Below, one piece after another: positions 39,302-58,432 of a DNA stretch of 64,000 bases. The notes below the pieces were generated by a model that was given only the letters and a program-made list of their open reading frames with translations, did not search any database and was not told where the DNA came from. This DNA is from Capsulimonadales bacterium. GTDB lineage: Bacteria > Armatimonadota > Armatimonadia > Armatimonadales > Armatimonadaceae. The translations under genes were made by a program, and so were the position numbers. Numbering within the stretch: the stretch's first letter is position 1; each line of letters starts with the position of its first letter. The DNA lies in the NCBI GenBank assembly GCA_033762295.1, contig JANRLW010000083.1, positions 1 through 64,000 of the forward strand, in the 5' to 3' direction.

Positions 39302-42300
39302 TTGATGTTCGTGAACATACGCCAGCGGGCAACGGTGTTTGCCCTTTTCGCAACGCTCGTGCTGGGCCTGTCTCTGCCCGCACAGGCGCAGAACGCCAAG
39401 TCGACTCCGACGAAAAAGACGACGGGTCGGTACACGGCACCGTTACCGGTACCGGTTTCTTCTTATCGTGGTTCCGGGCGCACCCGGCCGGTGGATAGCG
39501 GCGCTTCTACCGGCATGGCGATGGTGCCGACCCGGCGCGGACCGATGAAGGGGAACGGTATTTTTATTCCGTCCGATGTGCCCGTGCGTTCGACCGTCGG
39601 AGTCACCGGATTCAAGAAGGCGACCAGCCGCGTTCGGATCGGTGGCGCCAACGGCGCGTCCGTCACCGAAAAGGTGGTCAACCTGACGCAGACACCGGTT
39701 CCGGACGAGCGGGTGCCGGTCTGGACCGTCGACGAGCGGTTCCTGTACTTCGCGGGAAATTCCGCCGCCAACCCCGGTCGGTACAACATCTATCGTATCG
39801 CCTCCGATGAACCGACCGATGCCGGTGCCAACACCCCGGTCGCCATCTCCAATCCGGCGAATACCGGTTTTGACTACTACTTCCCTGTTATCAACCTGAA
39901 CCAGACCCGCGTTGCGTTTGTCAGGTCTTCCGATGGCAAGGACGTGGATGATCCGACCAAGAAGTGGGATCTCTATGTGGCCGACCTCCCCGCCAACGGC
40001 CAGTTCCTCGATACGGAGGAACTGGGGGCGAACAACCTGCGAAAACTGACCGAGGGACGTGACTTCCCGAACGGACAGGGTGGACGCGCCCGATTCGCTA
40101 CCGTCGGTCGGCCGGCCTGGGTGGGCAGTACGGATGTCGTCTTCTCCGCGCAGCTGGAAGGCGATCCGAACTTTCACCTCTTTTCGGTCAACATTCAGAC
40201 CCGTGTCATCTTCCAGTTGACGGCGGGCGCGGGCGACGAACGGAATCCGAGCGCCTCGCCGGATGGCCGCTATATTGCGTTCGACTCCAATGCCGAATCG
40301 AATACGACCGGCGGGACCTACGTCAGCGCACCGGCCGATCCCACCCGACGCGTGCGTACCGAGACGGATCCGGCCGCAACGCCGGCAGGTGCGGGTGCCG
40401 TCGGAAATACGCGAAACATCTTCATTATGGGGACACTCGGGCAGAACGTCCGGCAGTTTACCCTTCAGTATCCGGGTGCGCCCGCGGTCAGCAGCTTCCA
40501 TCCGACGTGGTCTTCCACCCAGAAGAATAACTTCATCAATCCGAACGGTGACGACCTCTTCATCGGGTTCGCCTCCGATCGTATACCTACTTTCGCCAGT
40601 GGGGACACAACGCAGAACACCGTCACCGGTTGGAACGCCGGACCGGCGAACACCAGCAGCATCTACTACGCGGTGGTCAGCCGCAACCAGGGGAATACTC
40701 TGCTTGGTGAAGCGGACCCGACCAATCTGGATGGTGTGGACGCAGATGGCGCGCGCCGTCTCGATACCGCCAACGATACGCTGCAGGGTGGGATTCTGAA
40801 CGACCAGACCCGACCCCGCTTCCGGGATCAGTATCCGACCTTCGCGCCGTTCGTCCGCGTCACGCGCATGTCCTGCCAGTCCAACCGCGTCGGCTCCTAC
40901 GCCAAGGATGGGATCGGGACGGGGTTCACGGTGACGAACGCCAAGGCGAACAACCTGTTCATTGCTTCCCTGATCGATATCACCGCGCCGACCCTGATCC
41001 GGTTCGACACGAGCAGTCCGACCGGCGAGGTCGTCCATATCAATCTGGTAACCAACGACGCCCAGCCGTACAACCCCGATCTCGCGGCCAGCGTTCGGAA
41101 CCGCTCCGATGGAATTACCCCCGGCTCGAAAGTCCACTTCGCCGTCCGTTTCGAGGATCGCGAGTCCGGAATGCGCCCGGAGAATAGTTCCGACGGAAAG
41201 GCGGTCTACCTTCAGATCAAGAACCCGAACTCCCGTTACCAGAGTGCCGCTCAGGGGGCATCCGTCCCGGATAACACTCACCGTGGCGAGCATAAGGAGT
41301 TCTACGACAACTTTACCGAAGCCTACGTGGAAGGGCAGACCTTCATTTCCTGGGCGAACCGGGCTACCGGGTACAACGTCGGCACGGAATTCGAAGCGCA
41401 GGCCATCAGTGCCATCTCGACCACCGATGCGGCTGCCGGAACCAACAATTTCCCCACCGACGTCGCCCGTGGAACGCCGTACTACAGCCACGAGTTCAAT
41501 ACCTTCGGTGACGGTCCGCTTTACGTCCCGAGTTTCAACGACCGGGTCGCCTTCAGCGGAACCTTCGGTCATTTCGGTCGAGCGGTCGCGCCGCTCGATG
41601 GTGGTACCTATACCGTTTACACAGGTGCCGGTGTCGCCCAAACGATTACCACACCGAATGTCTGGCTCCACCTGCGTCCGCTTGTTCAAACCGATGCCAA
41701 CGGACAGCCGGTAACGGACGCCAACGGCAATACGGTTCCGGTCCGTCCTGTCGATGGCAAAGGCGGTGTCCTTTATGGCGCTTCCTGGGTAACGCCTTCC
41801 GACGCCTCAGACTGGTATATCGACGTCATCGCCTACGATAACGCCGTCAATCCGTACAACCCCAATGAGCGTTCGAACGTCATCATCTACGATAACGTCT
41901 GGGGATTCTCGACGGCCGCTCCGATCTCCGGTCTGCCGCAGGATATTCTGGTCGTTTCGGATTACACGCTCGGGCAGAAGTTCTTCGCCTCGCGTTTCGG
42001 AACGCCGACCACCGACGACCGGTCGACGCGCAACCTCCAGCCCCTCTTCTGGGGAACCGAGTCCTATTTCACGGACGTCGACCTTCAGCGCTTCCCCTCC
42101 GAGCAGGCAGGACAGGAAGCGCCCTTTACAGGAACAACCCCGCCCAACCCGCCGAATGTCTGGGACCGCGATACGCCATTCCAGTTGTCCATCAGGACCA
42201 ATTCCGGCGTTTTTGGTGGAAATTTCTACAACCGATCGGGATACCCGAACGTTCTGGGGGTTTCCTCCTACAACGACGAAATTCTGGACTCCAGTGCGGT

Positions 42301-45300
42301 CTTTGTCGATGCCGCCGGAGGGTTTGAAGGATACAAACTTCCCGTAACCGGGCGCTACAGCATCTATCGAGTCCTCAGCCGTGGACCGGTGCCTGCTGCC
42401 CTCCTGCAGGACTACCTGCCCCAGCAGACGGTCGCACCGGCAGACACCGCCCGGGGCGAAACCGTACCGCGTACCGTTCTCAGCGTCAACCGAATGGTCG
42501 TCTGGGCGTCCCCCTTTACGGGGAACCTTTTCACCGGGGCGGGTAGCCTGACGGACATTCAGACCCAGAACGATTTGACCAGCTATGTCCAGTCGGGCGG
42601 ACGGCTCCTGATTTCCGGACAGGATATCGGTTTCGCACTCGCCGGCAACGGTCAAAACAACTTCTTTTTCAACAACATCCTGAAGGCAAGCTACCTTACG
42701 GACGGAGGTGGCCAGTTCACCGGAATCCAGGCTGCAACCTTCTCCGGTAACTCCGATTATGTTCTCCAGTTGACGCGCGACCCCTGGACCCCGGCGACCG
42801 GGACCCACGCGTATGGTGCTTTCACCGGTGGCACCCTGCCCTGGCAGTACCGTCCGCTCGATACCGGCGCGCCGGGTGGTAACGGAATCGTTCGTTACGT
42901 CAGCAATACCGCGACCCTTGGAGAGCGTGTCGGAGACGCTTCGCAGTCGGCCAACAGCGACGCCGGTTTCGTCGATCGCATTCGTGCTAATCCGGGCGTG
43001 ACCCCGACAGGAACGCCCGCCGGATCGCCGCCCGACTCGGTCGACCTGTTCCTCTTTCCCGGTAGTCCCGCCCCGCCCGCCTTCCCTGCGCCCGGAGCAC
43101 AGCCAACGGCCAGTGCAACCATCGCAGCCATCATCGGTAGTGCCGTGCCCTCCGGTTACAGCGCGATCGGACGAACGGTCTACGATCCCGCCCGGAGTGG
43201 TCAGCGCATCGGTAAGGTTGTCTATGCCGCGGCCGGTTTCGAATCCATCAGCCAGGGATGGTATAACTACGCGACCGGAACGCCAAGCATCACCTATCGA
43301 GCAACTCTCGGACGGCGTGCGGTTCTGATGCACAACATCACCTGCCACTTCCGCACCGGTTCCATCACAGGTCGAGTTCTCGACAATGAAGGCAAGCCCG
43401 TCAACGATGCCCTCGTTCGTGCCGTGCCGGATGTGGTCGACGATACGCAGGTCGCTACCGGTACGGCCCTGACCGACGAAAACGGAAACTTCCAGATCAT
43501 CGGTCTGCCGCCCGGATTCTATGTCCTCTTCGGGTACAAAGCCGGGTTCTATACCCAGCATAACCTCGGGAACACCGTCCATGGCGGATGGCGTGCAGCG
43601 GCCGACATCGCCCTGAAAGCCGCCGGACCCGGAGCCCTCAGCGGAGTTCAAAGGGGGACGGGCCAGCAGAACCCGCAGGGCGGCGTCTTCTCCGAGGACG
43701 GAGTCACTCCGATCTCCGGAATCGAGATTCAGGTCCGCCGGCGAGAGGTGAACGGCCTCTATACCAAGGTCGTTTCCTACTCCTCCGACGGAAGCAACCG
43801 TGTTGTCCTTCCCGATGGTAGCTCGACGCAGCTTCCGGCGGGCGCGTACCTGTTCCCCGCCCTGTTGATCTCCGATTACCAGGTGGTCGCGAACAGCATC
43901 TTCACCGTCCGGGACGGAAGAATCGTCGAGAAAGAGATTCGGGAGTTCCGCGACGCCAACGGCGCGATCTTCCGCGCTCACGTGAACGACGACGGCAGTC
44001 CGGTCAAGGAGCAGTACGGCGAGGTTCGCATCGGCGTCTCTCCGGCGAGCCAGTACCGGCTCGGAACCGGCGTCCAGGTGATTCCCGATCCGAACCCCGG
44101 TTCGGCCCAACCGATCGGACCGACCGTTCGCATCTCCGAGAACGTCACCGCTCAGGTCGACTTCCTGCTGCCCGCGCGGCCACAGCGGATCACCGGCCGC
44201 GTCCTGAATCAGGATAACAACCAGCCGATCGAGGACGCGATCGTCACCGCCACCCGCAAGAGCGACGGGACTCTGGTCGCTCAGGGAACGACCGACGCCA
44301 ACGGCGTCTACACGCTGAGCCGAATCAACCCGCCGGCGGGCGATCCCGATCCGACGCTACTGCCGGGCGCCACCTATGTCGTCTCGGCAAGCGCCAACGG
44401 ATTCAGTCCGAACGTGCCGCCGTCCGAAGCCAATAATCTGGATGTGGTCGTCGGTGGCCAGCTCGAGCAGACCGTGACCGCTCCGGATATCCGTCTGAAG
44501 ACCCTGCCGCCGGGTTCGGTTTCCGGTCTGGTTCGCCGGTTCGCCGGTTCCCAGCCGACCACCTCGGCGACGGAAGGCGCGACGGTCGACTTCTACGCGG
44601 TACAGGTGGTCGGCGGACAGCAGGTCCAGTCGCCGAACATCTCCTATACGGCGACGGTCGGCGCGGTGCAAACCACGTCCGACGGGTACCAGTTCAACTT
44701 CCGAATCGCGGAAGTGCTGCCGGGTACCTACAATGCCTACGTCTCCAAGCCCGGCCTTTCCGGAAATCCCTCGCCCTTCGCCAACATCACGGTGACGACC
44801 GGCGCGGAAACCCGGAACATCAACTTCATACTCGAACCGCCGAAGATCTACGGCCAGGGCCTTCAGCTCATCTCCGTGCCGCAGGACTACTCCGCGGTCG
44901 TCACCCGGGACGTCTTCGGTATCACGGCAAACGGTGATAACGATGGCGACGGAACCGCCGGTTCCGCCAACGATACGGCGATCCACAATATCTTCAACGT
45001 CGCCGACTGGTCGGGAACCAGCTACCAGACCTCGCCCGACCTCCGGCTCCGCCTCGGAAAAGGCTACTTTGTCCGGTTCGGAGACCAGGCGGCCATCGCC
45101 ACCAGCGGCGCACCGACACAGGCCACCTCCTTCCGGATCGACCTGTCGCGCGGCTGGAACCTGATCGGGCATCCGTTCTCCAATCAGGTCAATCCGAGCG
45201 ACCCGGCGGCGGATATCGACATCAGCGCACCCTCGATCGTCACCTACAGCTACGTGACCGTGACCGGCGTTCAGAGGACGGAAGTCTCCCTGGCGCAGGC

Positions 45301-46309
45301 GGTTTCCGATAACGCACTGCAGGGCGTGCTCTACAACTACACCGGTTCGGAAAACGGCAGTCTCTATCAGCCGGGTTCCCGACTGAAACAGTGGTTCGGC
45401 TACTGGATCCGGGCATTCGTCCCGGTCCGGATGACCCTGCGGTATCCGGGAACGGGAACCCGCGCGGTCAAGGCCGGAACGAAGAGCGGCGGGGTCTTCA
45501 AGTCGATAACCCGAGCGGAACGCGAACTGCACGTGCCGCTGGCGATCGCCTCGAAGAATGCCACCGACTGGCGACTTCAGATTGCCGCCCGCCAGGGTAA
45601 CCTGGCCGACACCGAGAACAGCGTCGGTGTCGCACCGGACGCGCATGAAGGGTTCGACAATCAGTACGACCATGAAAAACCGCCGATGGTCGGCGAGGCC
45701 CCTGCGCTGTACGTGGGAATCCTCGGCAAGGACATGGCCGGCCGTGCGACGACACTCTCCAGCAATGTCGCCGCTCCGGCGAACGCCACCACGTTCGAGT
45801 TCACCGTCCAAACAACGGCGGACGGACCGGTGACGGTCTACTGGCCCAACGTTTCCCGCTTGCCGCGCGGACTCGAACCGGTCCTGGTCGATACCGCGTC
45901 CGGTAAGCGGGTCGCCATGCGGAGCGGCTCCTCGTCCTACACGTTCACGCCGAACGGACGGGCCGAGCACCGGTTCCGTGTGGAAGTCTCCGCCGGGTCC
46001 AGCCTGCCGCTCGACATTCTGAACCTCCGGACGGCGTCCCGCGATATCAGCGGTGGCGGCAGCTACCGGTTCAGCTTCACGACCACCCGTGCGGTGAACG
46101 TCAATGCGGAGATTCGCACACTGACCGGCAAACGGATCAAGCGGTTCCAGAGCCGGGCGGCGGGCGGCGTCGAAACCTCCGTCGTCTGGGACGGACGGGA
46201 CGAAGCCGGGCAGATGCTGCCGCCGGGACCGTATGTCCTGACCGTCACGGCTCAGGATGATCGCGGAGCCAGTGTCAGCCGAAGAGTATCCGTGCTGAAG
46301 AACCAGTAG
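39302..46309 (+). CDS. Giant secreted protein: TolB/PD40 beta-propeller, alpha/beta domain, carboxypeptidase-regulatory-like Ig repeats, shared C-terminal module with FlgD-Ig-like domain
   Basis: RBS GAGGAGG; signal peptide AQA-Q; DERNPSASPDGRYIAFDSN; GSITGRVLD..GKPV..A.V...TD.NG.F...LPPG.Y; C-terminal WDGRDEAGQMLPPGPYVLTVTA. Confidence 0.88.
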   Translation: MMFVNIRQRATVFALFATLVLGLSLPAQAQNAKSTPTKKTTGRYTAPLPVPVSSYRGSGRTRPVDSGASTGMAMVPTRRGPMKGNGIFIPSDVPVRSTVGVTGFKKATSRVRIGGANGASVTEKVVNLTQTPVPDERVPVWTVDERFLYFAGNSAANPGRYNIYRIASDEPTDAGANTPVAISNPANTGFDYYFPVINLNQTRVAFVRSSDGKDVDDPTKKWDLYVADLPANGQFLDTEELGANNLRKLTEGRDFPNGQGGRARFATVGRPAWVGSTDVVFSAQLEGDPNFHLFSVNIQTRVIFQLTAGAGDERNPSASPDGRYIAFDSNAESNTTGGTYVSAPADPTRRVRTETDPAATPAGAGAVGNTRNIFIMGTLGQNVRQFTLQYPGAPAVSSFHPTWSSTQKNNFINPNGDDLFIGFASDRIPTFASGDTTQNTVTGWNAGPANTSSIYYAVVSRNQGNTLLGEADPTNLDGVDADGARRLDTANDTLQGGILNDQTRPRFRDQYPTFAPFVRVTRMSCQSNRVGSYAKDGIGTGFTVTNAKANNLFIASLIDITAPTLIRFDTSSPTGEVVHINLVTNDAQPYNPDLAASVRNRSDGITPGSKVHFAVRFEDRESGMRPENSSDGKAVYLQIKNPNSRYQSAAQGASVPDNTHRGEHKEFYDNFTEAYVEGQTFISWANRATGYNVGTEFEAQAISAISTTDAAAGTNNFPTDVARGTPYYSHEFNTFGDGPLYVPSFNDRVAFSGTFGHFGRAVAPLDGGTYTVYTGAGVAQTITTPNVWLHLRPLVQTDANGQPVTDANGNTVPVRPVDGKGGVLYGASWVTPSDASDWYIDVIAYDNAVNPYNPNERSNVIIYDNVWGFSTAAPISGLPQDILVVSDYTLGQKFFASRFGTPTTDDRSTRNLQPLFWGTESYFTDVDLQRFPSEQAGQEAPFTGTTPPNPPNVWDRDTPFQLSIRTNSGVFGGNFYNRSGYPNVLGVSSYNDEILDSSAVFVDAAGGFEGYKLPVTGRYSIYRVLSRGPVPAALLQDYLPQQTVAPADTARGETVPRTVLSVNRMVVWASPFTGNLFTGAGSLTDIQTQNDLTSYVQSGGRLLISGQDIGFALAGNGQNNFFFNNILKASYLTDGGGQFTGIQAATFSGNSDYVLQLTRDPWTPATGTHAYGAFTGGTLPWQYRPLDTGAPGGNGIVRYVSNTATLGERVGDASQSANSDAGFVDRIRANPGVTPTGTPAGSPPDSVDLFLFPGSPAPPAFPAPGAQPTASATIAAIIGSAVPSGYSAIGRTVYDPARSGQRIGKVVYAAAGFESISQGWYNYATGTPSITYRATLGRRAVLMHNITCHFRTGSITGRVLDNEGKPVNDALVRAVPDVVDDTQVATGTALTDENGNFQIIGLPPGFYVLFGYKAGFYTQHNLGNTVHGGWRAAADIALKAAGPGALSGVQRGTGQQNPQGGVFSEDGVTPISGIEIQVRRREVNGLYTKVVSYSSDGSNRVVLPDGSSTQLPAGAYLFPALLISDYQVVANSIFTVRDGRIVEKEIREFRDANGAIFRAHVNDDGSPVKEQYGEVRIGVSPASQYRLGTGVQVIPDPNPGSAQPIGPTVRISENVTAQVDFLLPARPQRITGRVLNQDNNQPIEDAIVTATRKSDGTLVAQGTTDANGVYTLSRINPPAGDPDPTLLPGATYVVSASANGFSPNVPPSEANNLDVVVGGQLEQTVTAPDIRLKTLPPGSVSGLVRRFAGSQPTTSATEGATVDFYAVQVVGGQQVQSPNISYTATVGAVQTTSDGYQFNFRIAEVLPGTYNAYVSKPGLSGNPSPFANITVTTGAETRNINFILEPPKIYGQGLQLISVPQDYSAVVTRDVFGITANGDNDGDGTAGSANDTAIHNIFNVADWSGTSYQTSPDLRLRLGKGYFVRFGDQAAIATSGAPTQATSFRIDLSRGWNLIGHPFSNQVNPSDPAADIDISAPSIVTYSYVTVTGVQRTEVSLAQAVSDNALQGVLYNYTGSENGSLYQPGSRLKQWFGYWIRAFVPVRMTLRYPGTGTRAVKAGTKSGGVFKSITRAERELHVPLAIASKNATDWRLQIAARQGNLADTENSVGVAPDAHEGFDNQYDHEKPPMVGEAPALYVGILGKDMAGRATTLSSNVAAPANATTFEFTVQTTADGPVTVYWPNVSRLPRGLEPVLVDTASGKRVAMRSGSSSYTFTPNGRAEHRFRVEVSAGSSLPLDILNLRTASRDISGGGSYRFSFTTTRAVNVNAEIRTLTGKRIKRFQSRAAGGVETSVVWDGRDEAGQMLPPGPYVLTVTAQDDRGASVSRRVSVLKNQ

Positions 46310-46506: not shown

Positions 46507-48645
46507 TTGAGACACTTAGTGCTTGGAAGCCTGGGAAGGCGTGTTAGCTGGACGCTGGTCGCGCTCTGGCTGCTGCCTCTCTTTCTCCTGGCGATGCCGC
46601 CCCGACAGGCATACGCACAGTTGAACCGTATCCCGACGGTTGCTGTTCTGGACTTCGGCGTTCTCGCCACGGCTCGCTCCGGCGCTATTCTGGGGCGAAA
46701 TGCAACGGACGCCGTCGTGGTCGAAATGAGCCGGACCGGAAAATACGATCCGTTCTCCCGGACGCAGATCAATCAGCAACTGCAGGAACTCGGCCTGACC
46801 CAACCGCTGAACAACAACAGCCTCCAGAAACTGGGGCAGGCGCTGGGTGTCGAATATATCGTGACGGGCGACGTCACCGGCGTTTCCTTCACGTCCAACC
46901 CGCGACGGGCCAAGGTAACCCTTTCGGTCCGCCTGACCGACGTCGTCTCCGGCGACCTTGCGAACGGCGCGATCCAGACCGGTTTCTCCCCGGCGCCTCC
47001 GGCGGGAATGCAACCGGATGATGAGACGCTGATCAATCAGGCGCTCTCCGATGCGGCGTTTAATGCGATCAAAACGATCAATAACTACACCCTCCCTGAG
47101 GCGACCATTCTTCAGACCCGCGATACCACCGAAGTGACCCTGAACCGGGGTGGACGCGACGGTATCACCCCCGGTCTGGAGATGACCATCATTCGCGGAC
47201 GGGATCGTATCGGACGCGTTCAGGTGACCAGCGTCGGTTCCACCGACTCGATCGCCCGTGTTCTCGACTACGGTAAGGGCATCCGACCGGAGGACCGCGC
47301 CCGGGCCGTCTTCAAACTGCCGGGCTACAGCGTCGCAACCGACGGTCTCATCACCTCCACCGTTCCCGACACGACCTCGTACAAGCCCCAGGGACGACGC
47401 GCCAAGCCGATCCTGACGACGATTCTGGCGATCGGCGCGGCCATCTTCCTCGCCCACCTGCTGTTCGATACCAAGTCCCGAACCAATGAGGCGACCGGTA
47501 TCGGAAAGATCGTCGCCCGGGCGTATGCCGAAGGGTCCGCTCCGGCCGCCGGCGATCCGGCCACCGCACGCGTCCTGGTCACATGGGAGCAGGCGTCCGA
47601 TATCCCCTCGCGTAACGTCATCGAATACCATGTCTGGCGCAACAACCAGATCATCGGTGTCTCGACGAACGCCAACCGGACGTTTATCGACGTGCCGACC
47701 CCGAACTTCACTCAGTTGACCTACACCACCGTCTCTTTCGGGAATCAGCCTCCCGGAAACGGTCCGGGTAACGGTGGGAACACCGCCGGAACGACCACCG
47801 GTGGAAATACGGGTGCGACGACCGGCGGAACCACGACCGGTGGTGGTGTCGGTGGTGGTGTCGGTGGTGGTGTCGGTGGTGGTGTCGGTGGTGGTGTCGG
47901 TGGCGGAGCGAACGCCGGTAACGGCAACTCCTTCCCGATCGGGTTCCTGTCGACCCAGACGGCGAACGTCACCGGCCTCCCCGTCGGTGTTACCAGTACC
48001 TACCAGATTAATATCGTCTACCAGAAAGTCGTTGCTCCGACCGTCACGACCGGCGGTGGAGGTGTCGGCGGCGGTGTTGGTGGCGGCATCGGCGGCGGTG
48101 GTGTCGGTGGCGGCATCGGCGGCGGCGGTGTCGGTGGCGGTGTCGGTGGCGGTGTCGGTGGTGGCGTCGGCGGCGGTGTTGGTGGTGGCGTCGGTGGTGG
48201 TGTTGCCGGCGGCGGAACCCTCCAGTACCAGGAAACCGCCGTTCGTGCGAGCAGCGGACCGGTCACTCCGATCGCCCGTCCGGCAATCAGCGGTCCGACG
48301 ACCGACCAGGACATCCGACGCGTCGTGGTCCAGTTCGGAACCGTTCAGGGTGCGGACCAGTACGTGTTCGAGTTCGCCAGCGATCCGAGCTTCCGTAACA
48401 AGACGGTTCGCGGCCCGTTCTTCTTCCCTGTCGCCAGCGGAACGACGAACACCGATCCGCTCGACATCTCCGGAGCATTCGCCTCGCTGAACAGTAACTC
48501 GCCGATCTACTTCCGGGTGGGCGCGAGATCGTCCAACGACCAGCCGGGACCGCTCGGAACCGGTACGCCGAACGGTGGGGATTACATCTATTCCGCCACA
48601 CCGTTCTCGTTCAAGAAGACCCTGACCCCGCCGAACCAACCCTAG
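46507..48645 (+). CDS. Secreted CsgG/FlgT-fold protein with FlgT-C-like domain, hydrophobic segment and Gly-rich beta-sandwich tail
   Basis: RBS GGAGG + TTG; signal peptide; TVAVLDF...R.QI...L.E...KLGQALGVEYIVTGDV...VRLTDV.SG; VTLNRGGRDGI.PG...IGRVQV; (GGGV)n tracts. Confidence 0.75.
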   Translation: MRHLVLGSLGRRVSWTLVALWLLPLFLLAMPPRQAYAQLNRIPTVAVLDFGVLATARSGAILGRNATDAVVVEMSRTGKYDPFSRTQINQQLQELGLTQPLNNNSLQKLGQALGVEYIVTGDVTGVSFTSNPRRAKVTLSVRLTDVVSGDLANGAIQTGFSPAPPAGMQPDDETLINQALSDAAFNAIKTINNYTLPEATILQTRDTTEVTLNRGGRDGITPGLEMTIIRGRDRIGRVQVTSVGSTDSIARVLDYGKGIRPEDRARAVFKLPGYSVATDGLITSTVPDTTSYKPQGRRAKPILTTILAIGAAIFLAHLLFDTKSRTNEATGIGKIVARAYAEGSAPAAGDPATARVLVTWEQASDIPSRNVIEYHVWRNNQIIGVSTNANRTFIDVPTPNFTQLTYTTVSFGNQPPGNGPGNGGNTAGTTTGGNTGATTGGTTTGGGVGGGVGGGVGGGVGGGVGGGANAGNGNSFPIGFLSTQTANVTGLPVGVTSTYQINIVYQKVVAPTVTTGGGGVGGGVGGGIGGGGVGGGIGGGGVGGGVGGGVGGGVGGGVGGGVGGGVAGGGTLQYQETAVRASSGPVTPIARPAISGPTTDQDIRRVVVQFGTVQGADQYVFEFASDPSFRNKTVRGPFFFPVASGTTNTDPLDISGAFASLNSNSPIYFRVGARSSNDQPGPLGTGTPNGGDYIYSATPFSFKKTLTPPNQP
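47839..47898 (+). repeat. Five perfect 12-bp repeats GGTGGTGGTGTC encoding (GGGV)5
   Basis: Read directly from the sequence. Confidence 0.95.
48052..48216 (+). repeat. Degenerate (GGGV/GGGI)n coding repeat
   Basis: Read directly from the sequence; synonymous variation between units. Confidence 0.9.
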
Positions 48646-48866: not shown

Positions 48867-51800
48867 ATGAGAAAGAACCTACGTCGTATCAGAGCCAATT
48901 CCTCTGCTACACGGATGCTGGCAGGACTGGCTGTTACGTTATGCCTTGCCTCGCTGGCCTTCGCTGGCGACCCGCCCGTTCCCAAAATCCAGGCGGGCGA
49001 AATCATCGTCAAGGTCGCTCCGGGCACGACGATCGACGCCGCCCGGCAACTGGCCGCCGACTCGGGATGTGAACTCCTGCGCTCCATTCCGTACGCCCCG
49101 AACTACTACGTGTTCCGGGCGGTCAAGTATGGGAACCTTACCGAGAAGCTGGTCGCCGAGGTCGATGACGATACTCGGACCGCGATCGGGAAACTGAAAT
49201 CCGTTCCCGGAGTCCTTGCGGCCGATCCCAACTATATTATCAACAAAGCGTTCGTCGAGAAGCCGGTTGTCCCGCTGCGCCCACAGACGGGCAACGCCAC
49301 GACCGCGGCGTCCCGGGCGACCGCGCCGCCCGACCCCTGGCGGTTCACCCCCAATGACGCTCTGTACGGGCGGCAGTACGGTCTGCCGATGATCCGAATG
49401 CCGGAGGCCTGGAGTATCCAGTCCTCCGCGCGACGGGTGATTGTCGGGGTCGCCGATTCCGGTATCGATGTCGGACATCCCGACTTCGCCACGGCGGACG
49501 GAACCGGGACACGTATCGTCGGAGGCCGGAACTTCTTCCCGGACGGCACGGGCGGAGCCGTCGATCCGAACGATATTCAGGATCGCGGTGGCCACGGAAC
49601 CCACGTTTCCGGTACGGTCGGAGCCACGACCAATAACGCGATCGGGGTCGCCAGTGTCGCCGGGTACAACGGCGGCGGGGTCGATGTGCAGTTCCGGGTC
49701 GCCCGCGTCTTCGGTCAGGCGGTCGGCGCGACCACCGATGTCGTGGTCAGCGGCGTCGGCTACCTCGTTGACCAGAACGTCGATGTCATCAACCTCAGTC
49801 TCGGCGGGTATGGCGACGTAACGGCCATGCGCGACGTGATCGCTCGGGGTATCGCCCAGGGAATCACCATCGTCGCCTCCCTGGGGAACGACGGATTCGA
49901 TACCGCACAACTTCCTTCGTTTCCCGCCTCCTATCCGGGAGTGATCGCCGTCTCCGCGGTCAGCATTGACCGTCGTCTGGCCTCTTACTCCAACTTCGGC
50001 GGAGTGGTTGCGATCGGCGCCCCCGGCGGCGACACCGCCAACCCCAACATCAATCTCTTCGATCAGCAGATCTGGTCGACCTGGCCCCGAACCGAACCCA
50101 ATTTCGGCGGCGTGGCCGGGTACGAAGCCATCAGCGGAACGTCGATGGCCGCACCGCACGTTACCGGTGCCGTCGCTCTGCTGCTGGCGGCCGGTGCGCC
50201 CCGCAATCCGGCGACCATCAAGGCCGTTCTTCAGGATAATGCCCAGCGACTTCCGGATGACGTCCCGAACAATGCGGGTGGCAACAAATACGGCGCGGGT
50301 CTTCTGGACGTCTACTCGGCGTTGCTGAACTACGCCGACCCCGCGTTCCGCATCGGATTCGTCGGGGACCTGGACCTCGGATCGTTTTATTCCTCCCAGC
50401 TTCCCGCTTTCCAGGTGCGCGCCATCGGTATCACCCGTGCCCCGGCGGCAGGAGCGGTCCGAATCGAGATTCAGAGCGCGACAATCCCGGTCAGCGTGGT
50501 ACGAACCCTGGTCGAAGGGACCGATTTCACGATCCCGCGGACGCTCGGACCTTCCCAACCGAAGGCGACCGTCGTGACGGTCACCGCCGGAGGAGCGAAC
50601 CTGAACCTGGCTCCCGGACGGTATAAGGCCGTTCTGAAAATCGGCGATGAAGTCTTCGGCAACCAGTTCTTCGAGATCATCTCTCGGACCCAGACGGCGG
50701 TGCGTTCGCTTTTCTCGTTCCCCTTCAAGGTCCGGTCCGTCATTCCGACCAATCCGGAGCAGGCGGTGTTCAACCCGGCTGTCTTTTCGCTGGCACGGTA
50801 CAACTCGCAGCGCTCCGCGACCGGTCCGGACTACCTGATCTATCGCTCGAACGGCAGTTCGAACGATCCCGGCGCCCGTTTCTCGGCGACCTTTACCGAC
50901 AACTCTCCGATCGTTTTCGAGGTGACCGACCCGACGACCTCGATTGCGCCGGTCGGTCTCGGGTACTGGCTCGATCTGGATAGGCCGGTGACCCTCAATA
51001 CGGTCGGTCCCGTGGCCGCCAATGCGGTCGGAATCCGTCTGACCTCCGCCGCCGGTGGCTGGAACCTGATCGGTGCGCCGTTCACCAAGCCGTCCGCCTG
51101 GGGGACCGTGTCGGTTCTCTACAACAACACGACCTACAGCCTGAACGACGCGATCATTCAGGGGGTCATCTCCAGCGCACTGGTCGGCTATGTCAACGGC
51201 GACTATGTGTATAACATTGCGCCGAACGGGAATCTGGAGCCGTTCCAGGGATACTGGGTGCATGTCCTCCGGGACTGTACGTTGATCATCGCGCCGACCA
51301 ACGTCGGACGGTCCGTTACCGGACTGGTGCCGACCCGCCAGGCGATCACGCAGGACAAGAGCGGATGGCGCGCCCGCTTTATGGCGACCGTGGCCGGTGA
51401 CCGGGATGGTCAGAACTACTTCGGCCAGGCCTCCTCGGCGTCCGAAGGAAACGACCTGCTCGATATTCCCAAGCCGCCGACGGGCTCAGGACATGCGTAT
51501 GTCCGGTTCCTGACGCCGGTTGGAGAAGGGCGCTCGGTTCCGAATGCGTTCGATATCCGCCCGCTCGACACCGGGTCGAAGACCGAGTGGACGGCGGCGG
51601 TCAGCACCGACCGGATCAACGCCGATGTCACCGTGACCTGGGACGGACTGGGGAACGTGCCGCGCCGCAATATTCTGACTCTGACCGATACGGCGACGGG
51701 ACGCAAGATCGATATGCGGAACCGGTCGTCCTATACGTTCAAGTCGGGCGAGGCGGGGACCACCCGGAAATTCACGATCACTCTGTCGTCCGCGCGAAGC

Positions 51801-52115
51801 GCCGGTCTCCTCGCGATCAATAATGTCGCGGTCTCCGGCGGACGAAGCACGGCGCAGGCCGGAATCGCCGTTCGTTTCAGTGTCACTGCCGAAGCGGAAA
51901 TCACGGGAACGATCAAATCGCTTACCGGGGTGAAGGTCGGTTCTCTGACCGGGGTCAGTCGTGCAGTGACAGGGGGGACTAACACTCTGCGCTGGGACGG
52001 CCGATCTCAAAGCGGAGCCGTACTGCCGCCCGGACCTTACCTGCTTGAAATCACCGCCCGTTCGGCAGACGGACAGACCGCGACCTTCAAGCAGCCGGTC
52101 CAGATGATGCACTGA
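48867..52115 (+). CDS. Secreted S8 subtilisin-like peptidase with shared C-terminal module / FlgD-Ig-like domain
   Basis: Signal peptide, propeptide, VADSG, HGTHVSG, GTSMAAPHV; C-terminal WDGRSQSGAVLPPGPYLLEITA. Confidence 0.93.
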   Translation: MRKNLRRIRANSSATRMLAGLAVTLCLASLAFAGDPPVPKIQAGEIIVKVAPGTTIDAARQLAADSGCELLRSIPYAPNYYVFRAVKYGNLTEKLVAEVDDDTRTAIGKLKSVPGVLAADPNYIINKAFVEKPVVPLRPQTGNATTAASRATAPPDPWRFTPNDALYGRQYGLPMIRMPEAWSIQSSARRVIVGVADSGIDVGHPDFATADGTGTRIVGGRNFFPDGTGGAVDPNDIQDRGGHGTHVSGTVGATTNNAIGVASVAGYNGGGVDVQFRVARVFGQAVGATTDVVVSGVGYLVDQNVDVINLSLGGYGDVTAMRDVIARGIAQGITIVASLGNDGFDTAQLPSFPASYPGVIAVSAVSIDRRLASYSNFGGVVAIGAPGGDTANPNINLFDQQIWSTWPRTEPNFGGVAGYEAISGTSMAAPHVTGAVALLLAAGAPRNPATIKAVLQDNAQRLPDDVPNNAGGNKYGAGLLDVYSALLNYADPAFRIGFVGDLDLGSFYSSQLPAFQVRAIGITRAPAAGAVRIEIQSATIPVSVVRTLVEGTDFTIPRTLGPSQPKATVVTVTAGGANLNLAPGRYKAVLKIGDEVFGNQFFEIISRTQTAVRSLFSFPFKVRSVIPTNPEQAVFNPAVFSLARYNSQRSATGPDYLIYRSNGSSNDPGARFSATFTDNSPIVFEVTDPTTSIAPVGLGYWLDLDRPVTLNTVGPVAANAVGIRLTSAAGGWNLIGAPFTKPSAWGTVSVLYNNTTYSLNDAIIQGVISSALVGYVNGDYVYNIAPNGNLEPFQGYWVHVLRDCTLIIAPTNVGRSVTGLVPTRQAITQDKSGWRARFMATVAGDRDGQNYFGQASSASEGNDLLDIPKPPTGSGHAYVRFLTPVGEGRSVPNAFDIRPLDTGSKTEWTAAVSTDRINADVTVTWDGLGNVPRRNILTLTDTATGRKIDMRNRSSYTFKSGEAGTTRKFTITLSSARSAGLLAINNVAVSGGRSTAQAGIAVRFSVTAEAEITGTIKSLTGVKVGSLTGVSRAVTGGTNTLRWDGRSQSGAVLPPGPYLLEITARSADGQTATFKQPVQMMH

Positions 52116-52215: not shown

Positions 52216-55200
52216 ATGGCGATTTTCGCTGCAACCATAAAAGGCCGTTCGGAGAACCGACGCGTCCGGCGCGCCGGGCAAGCAACCGGTCGGGGTCGCG
52301 CCCTCATTGGCGCCCTTGCCGTAGTGCCTGCCCTCGCCCTTGCCGGTCCGGCAACGGCCCAGACCGTCGGCAACCAGGGAGCGGTCAGCGGTTCCCGGGT
52401 GCTCTTTGAGTTTTTCGGATATGGTGGCCTGGTCCAACCGAACAACACCGATGCTACCAACCCGACGCTGGTTCCGATCCAGGATGCCGTTTTCGGGTTT
52501 ATCAAGAACCCGTACCTGGGCGTCGTCGTCGGCATCGGCGGCACCTACGGAGTCAGCTGGCCCGCCGGAACCAGTTCGGTTACCGCCACCCACAACGTTG
52601 CCGGGATGCTCACGTTCGGAAACGTGGACGGTAGTTCCCGGTTCTCGACCGATAACCTTCAGGCGCTGAACGGGTTCAACTATTTCGCCGGGGCCTACGA
52701 AATCTATGACACCGCCTCCGGTCGGCCGTTCGGCTATGGCGTCTGGCCGCTACCCGGTTGGTGGGAAATCACGAGCGGCGGTTTCATTACCTACGAATAT
52801 TCGGCCTATACCCGGATTCAACTGGACGATACCGTCACCAATGTGATGGGGTCCAACGGGGTCATCACCGAGCCGCAGATGATCAACAGCGTCCTCAGGA
52901 CGCCCTATGATGTCGGAAGCAACGTCCAGGTCGAACAGCAGATTCGCCTCTACCGGGCGACGGCCCAGTTGCGCTGGCGGATTACCAACAACGATACCGC
53001 GCCGCATACGGTCCGTCTGCGATTCACCGTGAACGTCCGCCCCGGCGTCCTGGCCGGTTCGACCGACACATCCAGAACCGGGTACTACTTCCTCGATGGG
53101 AACGGGCTGGTCTCCGATAACGCCCGTATCCTGACCGCCGCCGGTATTCCGGACCAGTTGACCGTCTACGGGAAGCGGTACGAGGTCGACAGCACGATCG
53201 ACCCGCCGTTCGCCGCCCGCCATACGCTGCGTGGGTTCGGCGCGACGATTCCGGAACGGGTGGTTCTGGCGCATCCCTTCGAACTGCGTCCGAATGTCGG
53301 CGGATTCTATCTGAACAGCTTCAACCGACCCAAACTTTCGGACGGCGTGGCGACGGCGGTCTACTTCGGGCCGTACACGCTGGCCCCCGGAGCGACCCAG
53401 GAAGTCGTCACCTACTACGGCAACGGATCGCCGACCGAAATTCCCAACAACGACTTCGTCATCTCCGCCGATGGGCCGGAAGCTCTGGCTTACAATGCGA
53501 ACGCCGTAAACGATCCGACGATCGCCGGGAACGTCGCCAAAGATCCGAACCAGGCGATTCCGAAATTCCTGTCGCCGAGTCCGTTCACCCTCTACGGGTC
53601 CATCTACAACTGGACCCCGCGCGACCCGCTGAACGCCGTCGGCATCACGAACGTCCGCGCCTCGCTGACACTGCCGACCGGCCTGGTGCTGGTGAGCGGA
53701 GAGACCGCCGAAAAGCTTGTGAACGGGAACGGAAATCTGGCCGCCGACACCGGAGCGGATATCGGCTGGGCGGTTGTTCCGACCGGAGACGCGTTCGGAA
53801 CTCTGGCCTATCAGATCAACATGGCCACGAACGAATTTGGCTCCCGCCAGATTACCCGTTCGATCAACGTTCCGGCCACACCGTTCCGACGTGTTACCGA
53901 GAACACCTTCCAGATGATCGGCTTCCCGTTCGAGTTCGACACCACCACGTCGAATAACGCCGATCCATCGACGGTTGTCAACGGTCTGACCAGCCCGGCC
54001 GATGATCCGGTCGTGTTCTATCAGTATGTCCCCGACCCGCAGAACGCGAACGGCCTGGGACGATACGTCGTCGCCAATCGGCTCCAAACCGGCATCGGCT
54101 ACTTCTACAAGCCGAACCTGACGCGAACGATCTACGCCAGGGGCGTCAAGCCGCTCGCCGGGCAGGCGAACACCGGGGTTACGGATTTCAGCAACGCCAA
54201 CCAGCGACAGCTAAACCTGGCCCGCGGATGGAATATCATCTCGAACCCGTATCTCTACGATATTCCGCTTCGCTCGCTGCGGTTTGTTACCAACATCAAC
54301 AGCAACCCGGTTTCCCAGAACTTCACTGAGGCCGTTCGCAACGGCGTGATTCGGGGCGGCGTTTTCTACCTCTCCACCGTGACCGGCAGCTACGATTTCT
54401 TCGAAGACACGGCGTTGCCGCTGAAGCCCTGGGAAGGTTACTGGATCTTCACGACCCAACCGATTACCCTGATCTACTCCCTGCCGACCCAGCGTCAGTC
54501 CGCGATTCTGCCCGCTCCCGGTGCGGACCCGAACCCGCCGACCCGCGGGGTCATCGCCTCCGGGCGAGCGATGGTCGCCCGGCCGACCGATGAGAACTGG
54601 CGGCTCCAGATTGTCGCCCGGAAGGGGAACGAACAAAACGACCGCGCGACCATCCTGGGGGTCAATACGGACCGAAGCGTCACCGACGCGGAGCGAACCG
54701 TCCCGAAACCGCCCGCCGGTGTCTCCGATTATGTGTACGTCGGCGTGGTTCGCCCGGAGACGTCCACCACCCGATTTGCCAAGGACATCCGGGCGACGGG
54801 TCGGACCAACGAATGGGAACTGGAAGTGTCCGCCGACCAGGATGGCCCGGTGACGCTGACCTGGCCAAACATCGGCACCCTGCCCCGCCGCCTGACGCTG
54901 TCGCTGAAGGATAAGGAGACCGGACGCGCCTACGCGATGCGCTCCTCCTCGTCCGTCACGATCAACGTCCGCAAAGGACAGCCGACCCGCGTCGTGGTGA
55001 CCGCGAAACAGGCCTCGGCCCAACCGCTCACGATCACCAATGTGCAGATTGTCGGAGGCCGTGGTCAGGCGGGTGGAAGCCGTTCCTTCGCGTTCAGCCT
55101 GAGCCGCGCCGCGACGGTCACCGGGAAGGTCAAAACCATCACCGGGAAAACCGTGGCGACCCTGGCGGTAAGCCGGGCGGCGAGTTCGGGAACCAACCGA

Positions 55201-55329
55201 CTGCAATGGAACGGACGAGCGGAGAACGGATCGATGATTCCGCCGGGGCCGTACAAGATCGAAATCGTCGCTCAGGACGATTCCGGCGAGACGGCTTCGC
55301 GCACCCAGCCCTTCATGACTATTGAATAG
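52216..55329 (+). CDS. Secreted beta-rich protein with shared C-terminal module / FlgD-Ig-like domain
   Basis: RBS AGGAG; signal peptide ATA-Q; GWNIISNPY, LKPWEGYWI, WRLQI, WNGRAENGSMIPPGPYKIEIVA. Confidence 0.85.
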   Translation: MAIFAATIKGRSENRRVRRAGQATGRGRALIGALAVVPALALAGPATAQTVGNQGAVSGSRVLFEFFGYGGLVQPNNTDATNPTLVPIQDAVFGFIKNPYLGVVVGIGGTYGVSWPAGTSSVTATHNVAGMLTFGNVDGSSRFSTDNLQALNGFNYFAGAYEIYDTASGRPFGYGVWPLPGWWEITSGGFITYEYSAYTRIQLDDTVTNVMGSNGVITEPQMINSVLRTPYDVGSNVQVEQQIRLYRATAQLRWRITNNDTAPHTVRLRFTVNVRPGVLAGSTDTSRTGYYFLDGNGLVSDNARILTAAGIPDQLTVYGKRYEVDSTIDPPFAARHTLRGFGATIPERVVLAHPFELRPNVGGFYLNSFNRPKLSDGVATAVYFGPYTLAPGATQEVVTYYGNGSPTEIPNNDFVISADGPEALAYNANAVNDPTIAGNVAKDPNQAIPKFLSPSPFTLYGSIYNWTPRDPLNAVGITNVRASLTLPTGLVLVSGETAEKLVNGNGNLAADTGADIGWAVVPTGDAFGTLAYQINMATNEFGSRQITRSINVPATPFRRVTENTFQMIGFPFEFDTTTSNNADPSTVVNGLTSPADDPVVFYQYVPDPQNANGLGRYVVANRLQTGIGYFYKPNLTRTIYARGVKPLAGQANTGVTDFSNANQRQLNLARGWNIISNPYLYDIPLRSLRFVTNINSNPVSQNFTEAVRNGVIRGGVFYLSTVTGSYDFFEDTALPLKPWEGYWIFTTQPITLIYSLPTQRQSAILPAPGADPNPPTRGVIASGRAMVARPTDENWRLQIVARKGNEQNDRATILGVNTDRSVTDAERTVPKPPAGVSDYVYVGVVRPETSTTRFAKDIRATGRTNEWELEVSADQDGPVTLTWPNIGTLPRRLTLSLKDKETGRAYAMRSSSSVTINVRKGQPTRVVVTAKQASAQPLTITNVQIVGGRGQAGGSRSFAFSLSRAATVTGKVKTITGKTVATLAVSRAASSGTNRLQWNGRAENGSMIPPGPYKIEIVAQDDSGETASRTQPFMTIE

Positions 55330-55374: not shown

Positions 55375-55479
55375 AGCCATTTCGGAAGGACGTCGAGCGG
55401 GTTTCAAGCCAAAACCATCGGAAAACCGATACGAAAACGAACTTGAGACCTTGCCGGGACGGAAGGACGGACATCAGGC

Positions 55480-56262
55480 ATGACGCAAACTATGAAAAAA
55501 ACCTCTCTTGGAGCGACAGGGATTCTGGCTGCCACTCTCCTGTTGACGGCGACCCTTCAAGCTCCCGCATATTCACAGCAGACAACCGCTTCGTCGCAAT
55601 CGGCGAAGTCCATGACCGCCGGAGTCAAACCGCTGCCGACCAACGTCCTGTTGTTCCCGGCGGTCATCATCGGCGCGGATAACGCCGTGGCCAAGGAAAC
55701 GCCGGCGACCAAGGTGGCGGGCGAAATCGTCACCGAAGCGGTCCGCAAATATCTCACCCTCGGCGGCGTCGGGGTTGTGGTCTACAGCAACCGCCTCCCC
55801 AGCGTTCAGCGCGCGGTCAACGAAGGCCAGGGAATCTCGCCGACCGATGCGGTGAAAGGACCCGCCGACGATGCGCGCGTCGCACAGAAGCTGGCGGAGG
55901 TGACCGGAGCGTCCGAGTACATCACCATCTCCGTGGATAACTACAATTTCGATCCGCAGACCCGCCGCGCCACGTTCAACCTGAGCCTCGAACGCAAAGC
56001 GGCAGACGGCTCCGCCATCTCCTCCGCCGCCGAAAAGGCGGTGGGCGAATCGCCGGCCGATGTCTCCGGACCCCAGCAGCAGGAATCGGCGATTGCCCGG
56101 GCGGCCGAGGAAGTCGCCGAAAAGAGCGTCATCGACGTCTTTCCGCAGTCCGCCGTGCTGATCAACCCTCCCAAGGTCGCGGAAAAGAAGAAGAAGCGAT
56201 CCAACCTTGGCTGGCTGATTCCCGTCGTCACTCTGGGCGGCATCCTCGCGGCGCCGCGCTGA
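55480..56262 (+). CDS. Secreted CsgG/FlgT-fold paralog with C-terminal basic-hydrophobic tail
   Basis: Signal peptide; QKLAEVTGASEYITISV...RRATFNLSL aligns by eye with the 46507 protein; ends KKKKRSNLGWLIPVVTLGGILAAPR. Confidence 0.7.
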   Translation: MTQTMKKTSLGATGILAATLLLTATLQAPAYSQQTTASSQSAKSMTAGVKPLPTNVLLFPAVIIGADNAVAKETPATKVAGEIVTEAVRKYLTLGGVGVVVYSNRLPSVQRAVNEGQGISPTDAVKGPADDARVAQKLAEVTGASEYITISVDNYNFDPQTRRATFNLSLERKAADGSAISSAAEKAVGESPADVSGPQQQESAIARAAEEVAEKSVIDVFPQSAVLINPPKVAEKKKKRSNLGWLIPVVTLGGILAAPR

Positions 56263-56365
56263 TCCGACCGAAAACCGTCCGGGGCACGTTCATTAGGATG
56301 GCTGCCCCGGGCTGACCCTGTCGGGACCCGCCCGGAGGCGGTCCGCCCCGGCACCTCTCCGTAAA

Positions 56366-58432
56366 ATGCGCCGTCGTCCTGCTCATTTCCCGCTCCTTCT
56401 TCCCCTCACTGCGGCGGCCCTCGTCACCGTAAACACGGACGCACTCGCGGCGGATAACCTCGGCGCCATCCGACTGGATGCCCAGCCGTCCCTGATCAAG
56501 GCGGATGGCCGAAGCCTGACCGTCATTTCCGCCCAGGTTTTCGATGAACGCGGCAATATCGCGGCCGATGGCACCCGGGTTCGATTCACCACGACCGCCG
56601 GTCGCCTGGACGCCCCGGAGGCGGTAACCAGAAACGGCGTCGCTCGCGTTACCCTGACCGCCGCCGATCAACCCGGCACCGCGACGATTATTGCCGTTCT
56701 CGATACGCCCGGTCGGGCGGTACCCGCGCGGATTACCGTTGTCTTCAGCAAGGAAGCGGAAGCCACCGACAGCAAAACCGCGTATGTTCGCATCGATGGA
56801 ACCCAGTACATCGGCTATGCCGCCGAAAAGGGAATCGTTCAGGCCAACGGTAAAAACGGGGGGGCATCGATCCGTTTCCGAAACATCGCGGTACAGGCCG
56901 ACGTCCTGCAGTTCAACGTTCGAACGAACGCGGTACTGGCCCTGGGGAACGTACGCCTGTCCGTGGCCGGACGCGAACAGCGTTACGATCACCTGATTCT
57001 CAATCTTCTACAGGGGAACGGGACCGCCGAACGAATCGCCGACGCGCATGTCGACGCCTTCGAACTGACCGGTCTGCGGTTTGATCCGGTCCCTTACCCC
57101 AAAGGTCGGCAACTGCCCCTCGGTACTACCTGGAATCTGACGGACCTTTCCGATGCCAGCATTATGGTCGTTTCCCGGGCGATGCTGATGGATCCGGGGA
57201 AACGCCTGCAATTTCGCCGGGCGACCTTCTTTGTCGATGGCAACAAGGTGTTTTCCACCCCGCTGCATGTCATGGGCCTGAACCAGGACAGCATCTTTCC
57301 CGAGCAGGTGGTCGGCTATACACAGGACGGGTTCATGGTGGATTTCCCGTTCTACTATCAGGCCGACCCGAGCGGGATCGGAACGCTCAATATTCGTCGT
57401 GCCGCCCGCGTCAGTTCCTCAGCGTACTCCGTACGTCCCGGCTGGTCGCTGGACCTGACCCAGAACTATTCGGGGGCGCGGAACGCCGGAGGGACCGTCG
57501 AGGTCAACGGGTTGTCACGTCAGGACTGGGGCATGCGTTTCCGCCATGCGCAGAATCTCGGCAAGGACACGACCGGCAATCTCTTTATCGATTTCCCGAA
57601 CCATCGCAGTCTTTTCCTCAACTCGCAGGCATCGCGCACCTACAAAACGTTTTCGCTGAATACGACCATTTCCGGTTCGCGATCTCCGGGGTTTCGGGAT
57701 GTGGTCACGGGGGCAAGTTCGCCCGCCAGCGGCGAACTGCGTCAGCAGGTCTACGCCGAGAGTTTCGCCCGGCCCGTCTCCTTCCTGAAACAGGTGCATT
57801 ACGCCATCAATGCGAACGCGGGGCAACAAAATCTGTTCGGTCAGGCCGAGATACCGGGCCAGCCGAAACCGCCACGGAACCTCTTTTCCCAGGGAGTCGG
57901 GAGCCGTTTCTTCACGGATGCGTTGCCCGTGGCGCGGGCGACGACGGTTCGGCAGTCCGTTTCCGTCGGGCGGGCATGGATTCAGGGATCGAAAACGCCG
58001 GGTTACGGGAATTCGGGTTTTACCCTGCTGGGAACCACGACCCTGGCGCGAAAGTTCGGCAATCTGGGTAGCGCCGAGGTCAACTACGACTACACGCAAA
58101 CGCCGCTGGCGTCCGGTGTGAATGCCGCCCTGATCAGTGGAAAACATCGTCTGGGGATGAGCGGATTTCTGGGCGGTCCGGAATGGGAGTTGTCGTTCAC
58201 CGGCTCCCATAGTCTCGATAGTCCGCAGTCCAGCATCTCCGGCACGATGCAGTTTCGGATCGCCGGCCCGTGGCGCGGCCGTGTCATCGGGTCCGTTTCT
58301 CGATTCGGCATACTGACGTATCAGGAATATGAGTACGCGTTGATCCGCCGCGTCGGGTCTCGCGATTTTGCCCTTTACTACTCCACGACCTCACGTCGAT
58401 TCCAGCTGGACCTGACCGGCGCGCGCTTCTGA
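56366..58432 (+). CDS. Outer-membrane protein: Big_1/invasin-type Ig domain + LptD/OstA-like region + probable beta-barrel
   Basis: Signal peptide; ADGRS...I.AQV.DE.G...DGT.V.F.TT.G.L; ADVLQFN...VLALGNV.L; amphipathic beta strands; terminal Phe (RFQLDLTGARF). Confidence 0.65.
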   Translation: MRRRPAHFPLLLPLTAAALVTVNTDALAADNLGAIRLDAQPSLIKADGRSLTVISAQVFDERGNIAADGTRVRFTTTAGRLDAPEAVTRNGVARVTLTAADQPGTATIIAVLDTPGRAVPARITVVFSKEAEATDSKTAYVRIDGTQYIGYAAEKGIVQANGKNGGASIRFRNIAVQADVLQFNVRTNAVLALGNVRLSVAGREQRYDHLILNLLQGNGTAERIADAHVDAFELTGLRFDPVPYPKGRQLPLGTTWNLTDLSDASIMVVSRAMLMDPGKRLQFRRATFFVDGNKVFSTPLHVMGLNQDSIFPEQVVGYTQDGFMVDFPFYYQADPSGIGTLNIRRAARVSSSAYSVRPGWSLDLTQNYSGARNAGGTVEVNGLSRQDWGMRFRHAQNLGKDTTGNLFIDFPNHRSLFLNSQASRTYKTFSLNTTISGSRSPGFRDVVTGASSPASGELRQQVYAESFARPVSFLKQVHYAINANAGQQNLFGQAEIPGQPKPPRNLFSQGVGSRFFTDALPVARATTVRQSVSVGRAWIQGSKTPGYGNSGFTLLGTTTLARKFGNLGSAEVNYDYTQTPLASGVNAALISGKHRLGMSGFLGGPEWELSFTGSHSLDSPQSSISGTMQFRIAGPWRGRVIGSVSRFGILTYQEYEYALIRRVGSRDFALYYSTTSRRFQLDLTGARF

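Follow-up and report, generated by a model that had tools for sequence, protein, structure and literature searches.

A phylum-wide, apparently undescribed gene cluster of Armatimonadota that probably belongs to a two-pore machine moving large proteins to the cell surface

What is the role of six adjacent genes whose products are related to parts of known export systems, and which nonetheless form a member of none of the systems tested? The question is raised by a locus of a Capsulimonadales bacterium (Armatimonadota; GenBank assembly GCA_033762295.1, genome completeness 94.5%), situated on the first 64,000 nucleotides of contig JANRLW010000083.1, the stretch analysed here and hereafter called the window. 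Six + strand open reading frames, named A to F, follow each other at 39302-58432 in the order A-B-C-D-E-F with intergenic gaps of 100-221 bp, and each product starts with a hydrophobic stretch in a Kyte-Doolittle scan (signal-peptide cleavage was judged by eye, without a predictor), so that the six consecutive genes with signal peptides of the original prediction, drawn from the letters of the window only, were correctly described. The cluster proves to be real, phylum-wide and apparently undescribed. Its best explanation, to which we assign a probability of about 0.55, is a model with two pores in which a large unlinked barrel, S, would export cargo tagged with a C-terminal domain, Z, and F, a paralogue of LptD, would insert B by its helix in the outer membrane, with X, a further domain of the cargo, docking the cargo.

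Three of the products are the cargo proteins. A (39302-46309; 2335 aa, predicted to be exported) contains a PD40 propeller and carboxypeptidase-regulatory-like immunoglobulin (Ig) domains, C (48867-52115; 1082 aa) a subtilisin-family S8 protease (residues 190-472, PF00082, with the D197/H243/S426 motifs and the triad intact), and D (52216-55329; 1037 aa) a beta-rich N-terminal part of no known type. All three end in a common module, as predicted: BLASTP finds their last 420-450 residues alike, and nothing else (E 1e-22 to 1e-40, 26-32% identity). This module is composed of three domains, X, Y and Z, and lies on the + strand at 44987-46297 in A, 50934-52109 in C and 53992-55323 in D, with Z, an Ig domain resembling those of FlgD and of C-terminal sorting domains (CTDs), at 46043-46258, 51849-52070 and 55075-55281, respectively. 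The predicted FlgD-like ending is thus present, each protein finishing with PF13860 FlgD_ig, which in C fell just below the cut-off in one search and above it in another. Domain X (about 170 aa, with aromatic motifs) has no match in Pfam or the PDB, and its look-alikes in the Atlas are unnamed clusters. In B (46507-48645; 712 aa) a CsgG/TolB-N-like domain and a TsaP/FlgT-C-like domain are followed by a patch of basic residues, then by a hydrophobic helix and a pair of Fn3-like domains into which Gly-rich stretches are inserted; the Fn3-like domains are assigned from weak PDB matches. E (55480-56262; 260 aa) has a single CsgG/TolB-N-like domain, a basic patch and a C-terminal hydrophobic helix (56206-56256). 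The CsgG/FlgT label given earlier to both holds for the shared CsgG-like fold (they are paralogous, HHalign 98.6%) and fails for E in the FlgT-C-like domain; likewise, the two CsgG-fold proteins are there, but they do not strictly alternate with the cargo. The last product, F (56366-58432; 688 aa), ends in Phe and is discussed below.

The anatomy, synteny and paralogy of these parts, as well as their joint losses, were observed directly in a phylum sample of 151 genomes that includes the source genome; genomes (G), contigs (C), loci (L) and families (f) are cited by our own handles where necessary. F is present in 147 of them (146 by a first search, one more by profile), the remaining G046, G105, G123 and the fragmented G082 giving weak matches only, to Ig domains or other paralogues. 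The module profile matches 138/151 genomes at E 1e-15 and the profile of domain X adds two with cargo (22 genomes searched); 11 have no cargo, namely all seven f25 genomes, a single genome of f38, and also G046, G105 and G123. The N-terminal part of B is found in 64/64 chosen genomes, in one weakly. Of 63 F loci, picked for assembly quality and family spread and not at random, 50 reach 8 kb or more upstream; among these, B occurs in 40, cargo in 33, E in 29, at least one of them in 42 and none in 8. The cluster is therefore syntenic across Armatimonadota: its complete order recurs in distant families, and orthologues of A head it in many. Both C and E are missing from it in several families, and the suggestion that the S8 protease is the processing enzyme is rejected for an obligate role. 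In scans aimed beyond the phylum, plasmids gave no match and single-protein scans returned either nothing or two Armatimonadota contigs; a search of representative proteins yielded 5141 at E 1e-30 or better, without taxa. Homologues in the sources that name them are called hypothetical or named after a single domain. No published account of the cluster, or of SprA in Armatimonadota, was found in the sources within reach, among which most subscription journals and bioRxiv supplements do not count, so that a mention in a table is possible.

The two-pore mechanism is proposed because losses of its parts are nested: X cargo is never seen without F and a full B among the genomes examined in detail, and Z rarely occurs without S. 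The first relation is clearest in the F-less G046, G105 and G123, which have lost F, X cargo and the tail of B (helix and Fn3 pair) together and have kept the N-terminal part of B. Their B stops 19-24 residues after the second domain, before the helix, which in the source genome lies on the + strand at 47410-47460 (residues 302-318) and is missing only in these three genomes among those examined; in hydrophobicity of the tail G046, G123 and G105 are the lowest of 55 (-1.3 to 0.4), the other 52 reaching at least 1.47. Since the other members of their two genera retain F, cargo and an untruncated B, at least two losses are probable. This joint loss sustains the earlier view of them as one unit. 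The basic residues of B precede the helix, on the would-be periplasmic side. Such a placement runs counter to the usual rule for inner-membrane anchors. Two Gly-rich low-complexity runs in the Fn3 region of B (window 47750-48200) vary among orthologues, and in G105 (L142:6025-12612) the truncated B and E stand directly before lptF/G and another LptD.

The second relation involves S, encoded away from the cluster (G000:C85:46252-49911; L180:8253-11912, G000 being the source genome), a SprA-like barrel that also ends in Phe. TIGR04189 SprA gave sub-threshold matches in 22/42 genomes; PF14349 SprA_N gave nothing in the source genome and its control was silent, a blank that was misleading, because the TIGR04189 search later found S. 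A profile built from 18 S proteins matches 90/151 genomes over full or near-full length at E 1e-90 or better. When Z is scored in those 90 by a module match of E 1e-75 or better (the best match stopping before Z has 1.5e-57), and in the 61 S-less genomes over at most 29 candidates per genome, 90 genomes have both, none has S only, six have Z only and 55 have neither. The six are G056, G087 and G144, fragmented into 180-300 contigs, and G019, G059 and G150, with one such cargo each. In a tree of 70 F proteins built with FastTree, a gene tree with some long branches, S and Z change 10 times each, and about 6 of 7 independent S/Z pairs on well-supported branches are concordant, with none opposite (sign test, p 0.03-0.06). 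Family f2, sister to that of the source genome, lacks both, and G010 has X-only cargo and carries an S-like gene whose N-terminal part is missing. Module-bearing cargo lies near S in 10/18 S loci, often with a protein in between whose Fn3 pair is homologous to that of B (HHalign 97.9%, four sequences). In the source genome a DUF5693 gene and one for a polysaccharide pyruvyl transferase stand directly before S, an arrangement that inspection by eye shows in most S loci.

Resemblance of S to SprA consists of matches to TIGR04189 positions 587-687 in 17/18 members and, collinear with these, matches of N-terminal pieces to positions 98-228 in 2/18, together with an estimate of about 36 strands (8 + about 2 + 26), a rough count that is near SprA's 36. 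By hypothesis, S would act like SprA. A second large-barrel family with the small domain of S occurs behind an anti-sigma-like gene (L197:6926-9676, L198:6529-9744), and several genomes hold two or three proteins with that domain. The likeness to the T9SS (type IX secretion system) extends to the cargo, whose unrelated N-termini are joined to a C-terminal Ig sandwich with a weaker match, after the best ones to FlgD, to the CTD of PorU (6za2, E 2.6e-4), and to the joint gain or loss of barrel and CTD. On the contrary, S has about 850-1200 aa against the 2319 positions of the SprA model, and the carrier PorV (PF19572; Bacteroides control positive) is detected in just 1/42 genomes and in none with S, a result that leaves room for a very divergent carrier; the sole match (G131:C1:1483305-1483754) belongs to a genome without S and without cargo. 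GldM (TIGR03517) matched in 0/25 S-bearing genomes with a silent control, and GldL, GldK and GldN were not searched for. TIGR04183, the T9SS CTD, gave no match, its control being silent too. The Lys conserved at the C-terminus of type A CTDs, according to the accessible part of PMC10994853, is among the last 8 residues in 6/40 modules here, Z usually ending in Arg. By PorV and the conserved Lys, S and the module fall outside T9SS membership; they also come from another phylum, and the cargo genes are tied to an LptD paralogue. The accessible parts of two reviews describe T9SS as limited to Bacteroidota or the Fibrobacterota-Chlorobiota-Bacteroidota (FCB) group (PMC7906972, PMC12398890). As expected from the window, neither T9SS nor curli turned up as a complete system, although the unlinked SprA-like barrel goes part of the way towards a T9SS elsewhere in the genome, which would count against the original prediction.

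Cargo endings vary, many stopping directly after X, some after Y and most after Z. Z, which the original prediction took as the common signal, is therefore not a universal one, because the cargo of many lineages ends after X; 55/151 genomes have no match reaching Z, and most of these keep F, B and X or XY cargo. Cargo per genome is mostly few and fixed (1-12 scored), the largest set being that of G010 (L158, L230) with 26 X-domain matches, all without Z. In the source genome FlgD_ig has 5 matches, four cargo proteins and one 851-aa protein, and a stand-alone FlgD hook cap is not among them. The 851-aa protein (G000:C64:116933-119485; L032:6934-9486) consists of an N-terminal FlgD-like Ig domain and propeller repeats and has no domain X. 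The fourth, unlinked cargo (G000:C125:38399-41632; L031:8400-11633) bears the X-Y-Z module. Its N-terminal part we take to resemble a degenerate zinc peptidase, and HExxH is intact in none of the 10/10 orthologues checked. Behind it, at C125 41647-42582, lies a gene for a probable lipoprotein of carboxypeptidase-regulatory-like domains.

F had been predicted to be an Ig and LptD-like protein, and the model obtained from a 66-sequence alignment agrees (pLDDT 85.5; a single-sequence fold of pLDDT 31.9 was superseded). It displays an Ig domain (Big_1/Invasin_D3, 56471-56740), a beta-jellyroll (about 56786-57277) and a barrel (about 57308-58411) of about 22 strands by DSSP and, likewise, by profile periodicity; the predicted structure thus has the jellyroll followed by a large outer-membrane barrel that marks the LptD family. 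LptD comes first in a Foldseek search with the model (E 1.8e-14, TM about 0.3), and the F profile finds LptD of N. gonorrhoeae (7omm, E 3e-6) and two further LptD-like genes in the source genome (C64 17707-20229 and C65 11560-13305; L051, L052), PF04453 and PF03968 missing all three. The C64 paralogue is matched in 47/59 genomes, aligns with F over the full length (HHalign 99.7%) and conserves a TTC motif that F lacks; in 13/20 loci, a PF03739 lptF/G gene lies directly upstream of it. As judged from sequence, F is an LptD paralogue distinct from the lptF/G-linked one. It is not the sole or housekeeping LptD, in view of these paralogues and of its absence from G046, G105 and G123, where it is dispensable; nor does it conform to a 26-strand LptD plugged by the lipoprotein LptE, having fewer strands and, as its neighbour, E without Cys. 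It further differs from canonical LptDE in its N-terminal Ig domain. A third, shorter paralogue is the sole other type found in f25, f38, f7 and f26; since several F-keeping genomes have only this one, F could carry lipopolysaccharide (LPS) there. The shortest paralogue often lies behind a gene resembling, by eye, an SLH-domain porin (no Pfam match), and the phylum holds three LptD clades. The first residues of the F model superpose in structural alignments on plug regions of TonB-dependent barrels, a hint that the Ig domain may occupy the barrel lumen; the idea of such a plug comes from these aligned ranges, because mutual information over 107 F sequences gave conserved-column artefacts only. 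A complex prediction with the F jellyroll and barrel, domain X and B from its helix to its end, all from G148, scored 0.08, which speaks neither for nor against binding.

In Bacteroidota, LptD exports surface lipoproteins, according to the available text of 10.64898/2026.10.03.756453. That system (also PMC13692018, likewise accessible in part) resembles the one proposed here in an LptD-family barrel that would move an anchored hydrophilic protein and in Ig-like partners. It differs in using the housekeeping LptD and lipoproteins, whereas F is a paralogue of its own, fused to an Ig domain and with about 22 strands, and B, the partner lost along with it, carries a peptide helix and contains no Cys. 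The same texts cite a Borrelia LptD homologue as a parallel, and the accessible part of the former contains no mention of "Armatimonad-".

Considering that the location and transport of all parts are inferred from sequence, the model can be stated as follows. A-F would cross the inner membrane by Sec, as their N-terminal hydrophobic stretches suggest. In a first, near-universal tier, F would handle B as LptD handles a lipid-anchored substrate, inserting the helix of B in the outer membrane and bringing the Fn3 pair to the surface, with the CsgG-like domains staying in the periplasm; domain X would then hold A, C, D and the fourth cargo on the B platform or on each other. In a second tier, confined to the 90/151 genomes with S, a cap-less S would recognise Z and move Z-tagged cargo across the outer membrane with no detectable PorV or GldM, the link between S and Z coming from their co-occurrence and the transport being conjectural. 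Lineages without S would have shortened their cargo so that it ends with X or XY, with F as the likeliest route there, or another one. That the whole is a categorically new system of secretion and display, one that would define the envelope of Armatimonadota and in which an Ig-bearing LptD paralogue flips helix-anchored domains out together with a mini-SprA free of carrier and motor, is a tentative proposal to which we give somewhat less than even odds.

Several observations weigh against the two-pore model. Regarding S, it scores about 50 bits with TIGR04189, where the cut-off is 200; none of 14 C-terminal parts (500-600 aa) shows a match to SprA, and 16/18 of the N-terminal pieces are without one; the match at 587-687 says little by itself, because that motif is present in other Armatimonadota proteins too; for the other LptD the strand count came out at 30-32 instead of the expected 26; and the S profile retrieves no solved SprA, which excludes nothing. 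Six genomes carry Z without S, and Z is far closer to FlgD than to T9SS CTDs. As many as 40 of the 55 genomes without S and Z still have X cargo (E 1e-24 or better), and the route of such X-only cargo is, beside the energy source, which the failure to find a carrier or motor leaves unexplained, the main gap of the model. Conversely, in f25 (7/7) and f38 F persists with an untruncated B but without X cargo, and several genomes of f25/f38 type have no lptF/G-linked LptD, so that F is possibly the LPS carrier there. Finally, the propeller and regulatory-like domains of A recall the periplasmic TolB/PorE.

These TolB/PorE-like domains also speak for a different reading, a periplasmic envelope scaffold in which A, C and D would assemble via X, Z would plug into S, and B, E and F would serve as anchors to the outer membrane, nothing large being exported. 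The DUF5693 and polysaccharide pyruvyl transferase genes directly before S serve cell-wall anchoring; cargo persists in S-less genomes, and its small, fixed set in most genomes (1-12 scored) looks subunit-like rather than secretome-like. Such a scaffold is nonetheless hard to reconcile with an expansion to about two dozen cargo proteins in G010 (26 X matches), with cargo of 1000-4000 aa built from Ig, propeller and protease domains that has a CTD homologue at its end, with the resemblance of S to SprA, and with the dependence of the B helix and distal Fn3 pair on F; we regard it as unlikely, though the most credible of the alternatives. If, instead, F with B, E and the cargo as accessory subunits formed an enlarged Lpt, a second translocon for LPS or another glycolipid with S and Z as an add-on, then the retained jellyroll and barrel of F, the presence of lpxC in 59/59 genomes searched, the weak LptE match of E (E 0.018) and the position of B and E before lptF/G and the other LptD in G105 would find an explanation, and expanded Lpt translocons are described for Bacteroidota in the available text of 10.64898/2026.10.03.756453. 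However, the three F-less genomes retain lpxC, lptF/G is linked to another paralogue, F has about 22 strands and not the TTC motif of the latter, and it is protein parts, the B tail and cargo, and not LPS genes that go with F, making this second reading improbable.

The least probable reading, and a very doubtful one, is that of the original prediction, by which B and E, as CsgG-like pores of ring shape, would join F in exporting cargo via the FlgD-like domain and C would process it. B does match PF03783 CsgG, its N-terminal part is universal and the synteny is tight; B and E, moreover, share the CsgG/TolB-N-like fold family with the curli system (type VIII secretion system). This match, however, covers profile positions 6-100 of 210, that is, the first half only. 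Since both proteins are devoid of Cys, and hence no lipoproteins, and CsgF was not found (control positive), B and E are not taken as a curli pore, and a pore of that type is unlikely also from the absence of most of the CsgG profile. Further departures from curli are the helix anchor and the large folded-domain cargo. In addition, Z follows S and not B, E or F, many clusters do without C and E, and the N-terminal part of B survives where F and cargo have been lost.

Around the cluster, a 124-aa open reading frame at 38900-39274 was rejected as a gene of the system, having no family, and promoter and terminator scans gave matches at chance level only. A primary-type sigma-70 gene and an extracytoplasmic function (ECF) sigma gene at window 58486-60635 converge on the cluster end. 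An apparent frameshift, either an assembly error or decay, splits F of G131 (L060:5052-7239) and likewise D of G103 (L045:7815-10545).

If the two-pore model is true, a SprA-like barrel that co-evolves with a CTD-like tag, with no detectable PorV or GldM, provides a minimal system for what SprA alone does. On the more far-reaching reading of a new display system, T9SS-type export would exist outside the FCB group, and the system could serve as model of a translocon in its minimal or ancestral form. Protein export by LptD is a recent finding for lipoproteins, as far as the accessible literature goes, and F would be a paralogue devoted to proteins. The natural series of losses points to a protein anchored by a helix as its likely substrate; to our knowledge, little is understood of the way in which helical anchors get to outer membranes. 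The cluster and S are probably the core of an undescribed envelope machine that moves large proteins to the surface by two pores and, its genes being near-universal in the phylum, would then offer the first concrete model of the Armatimonadota cell surface.

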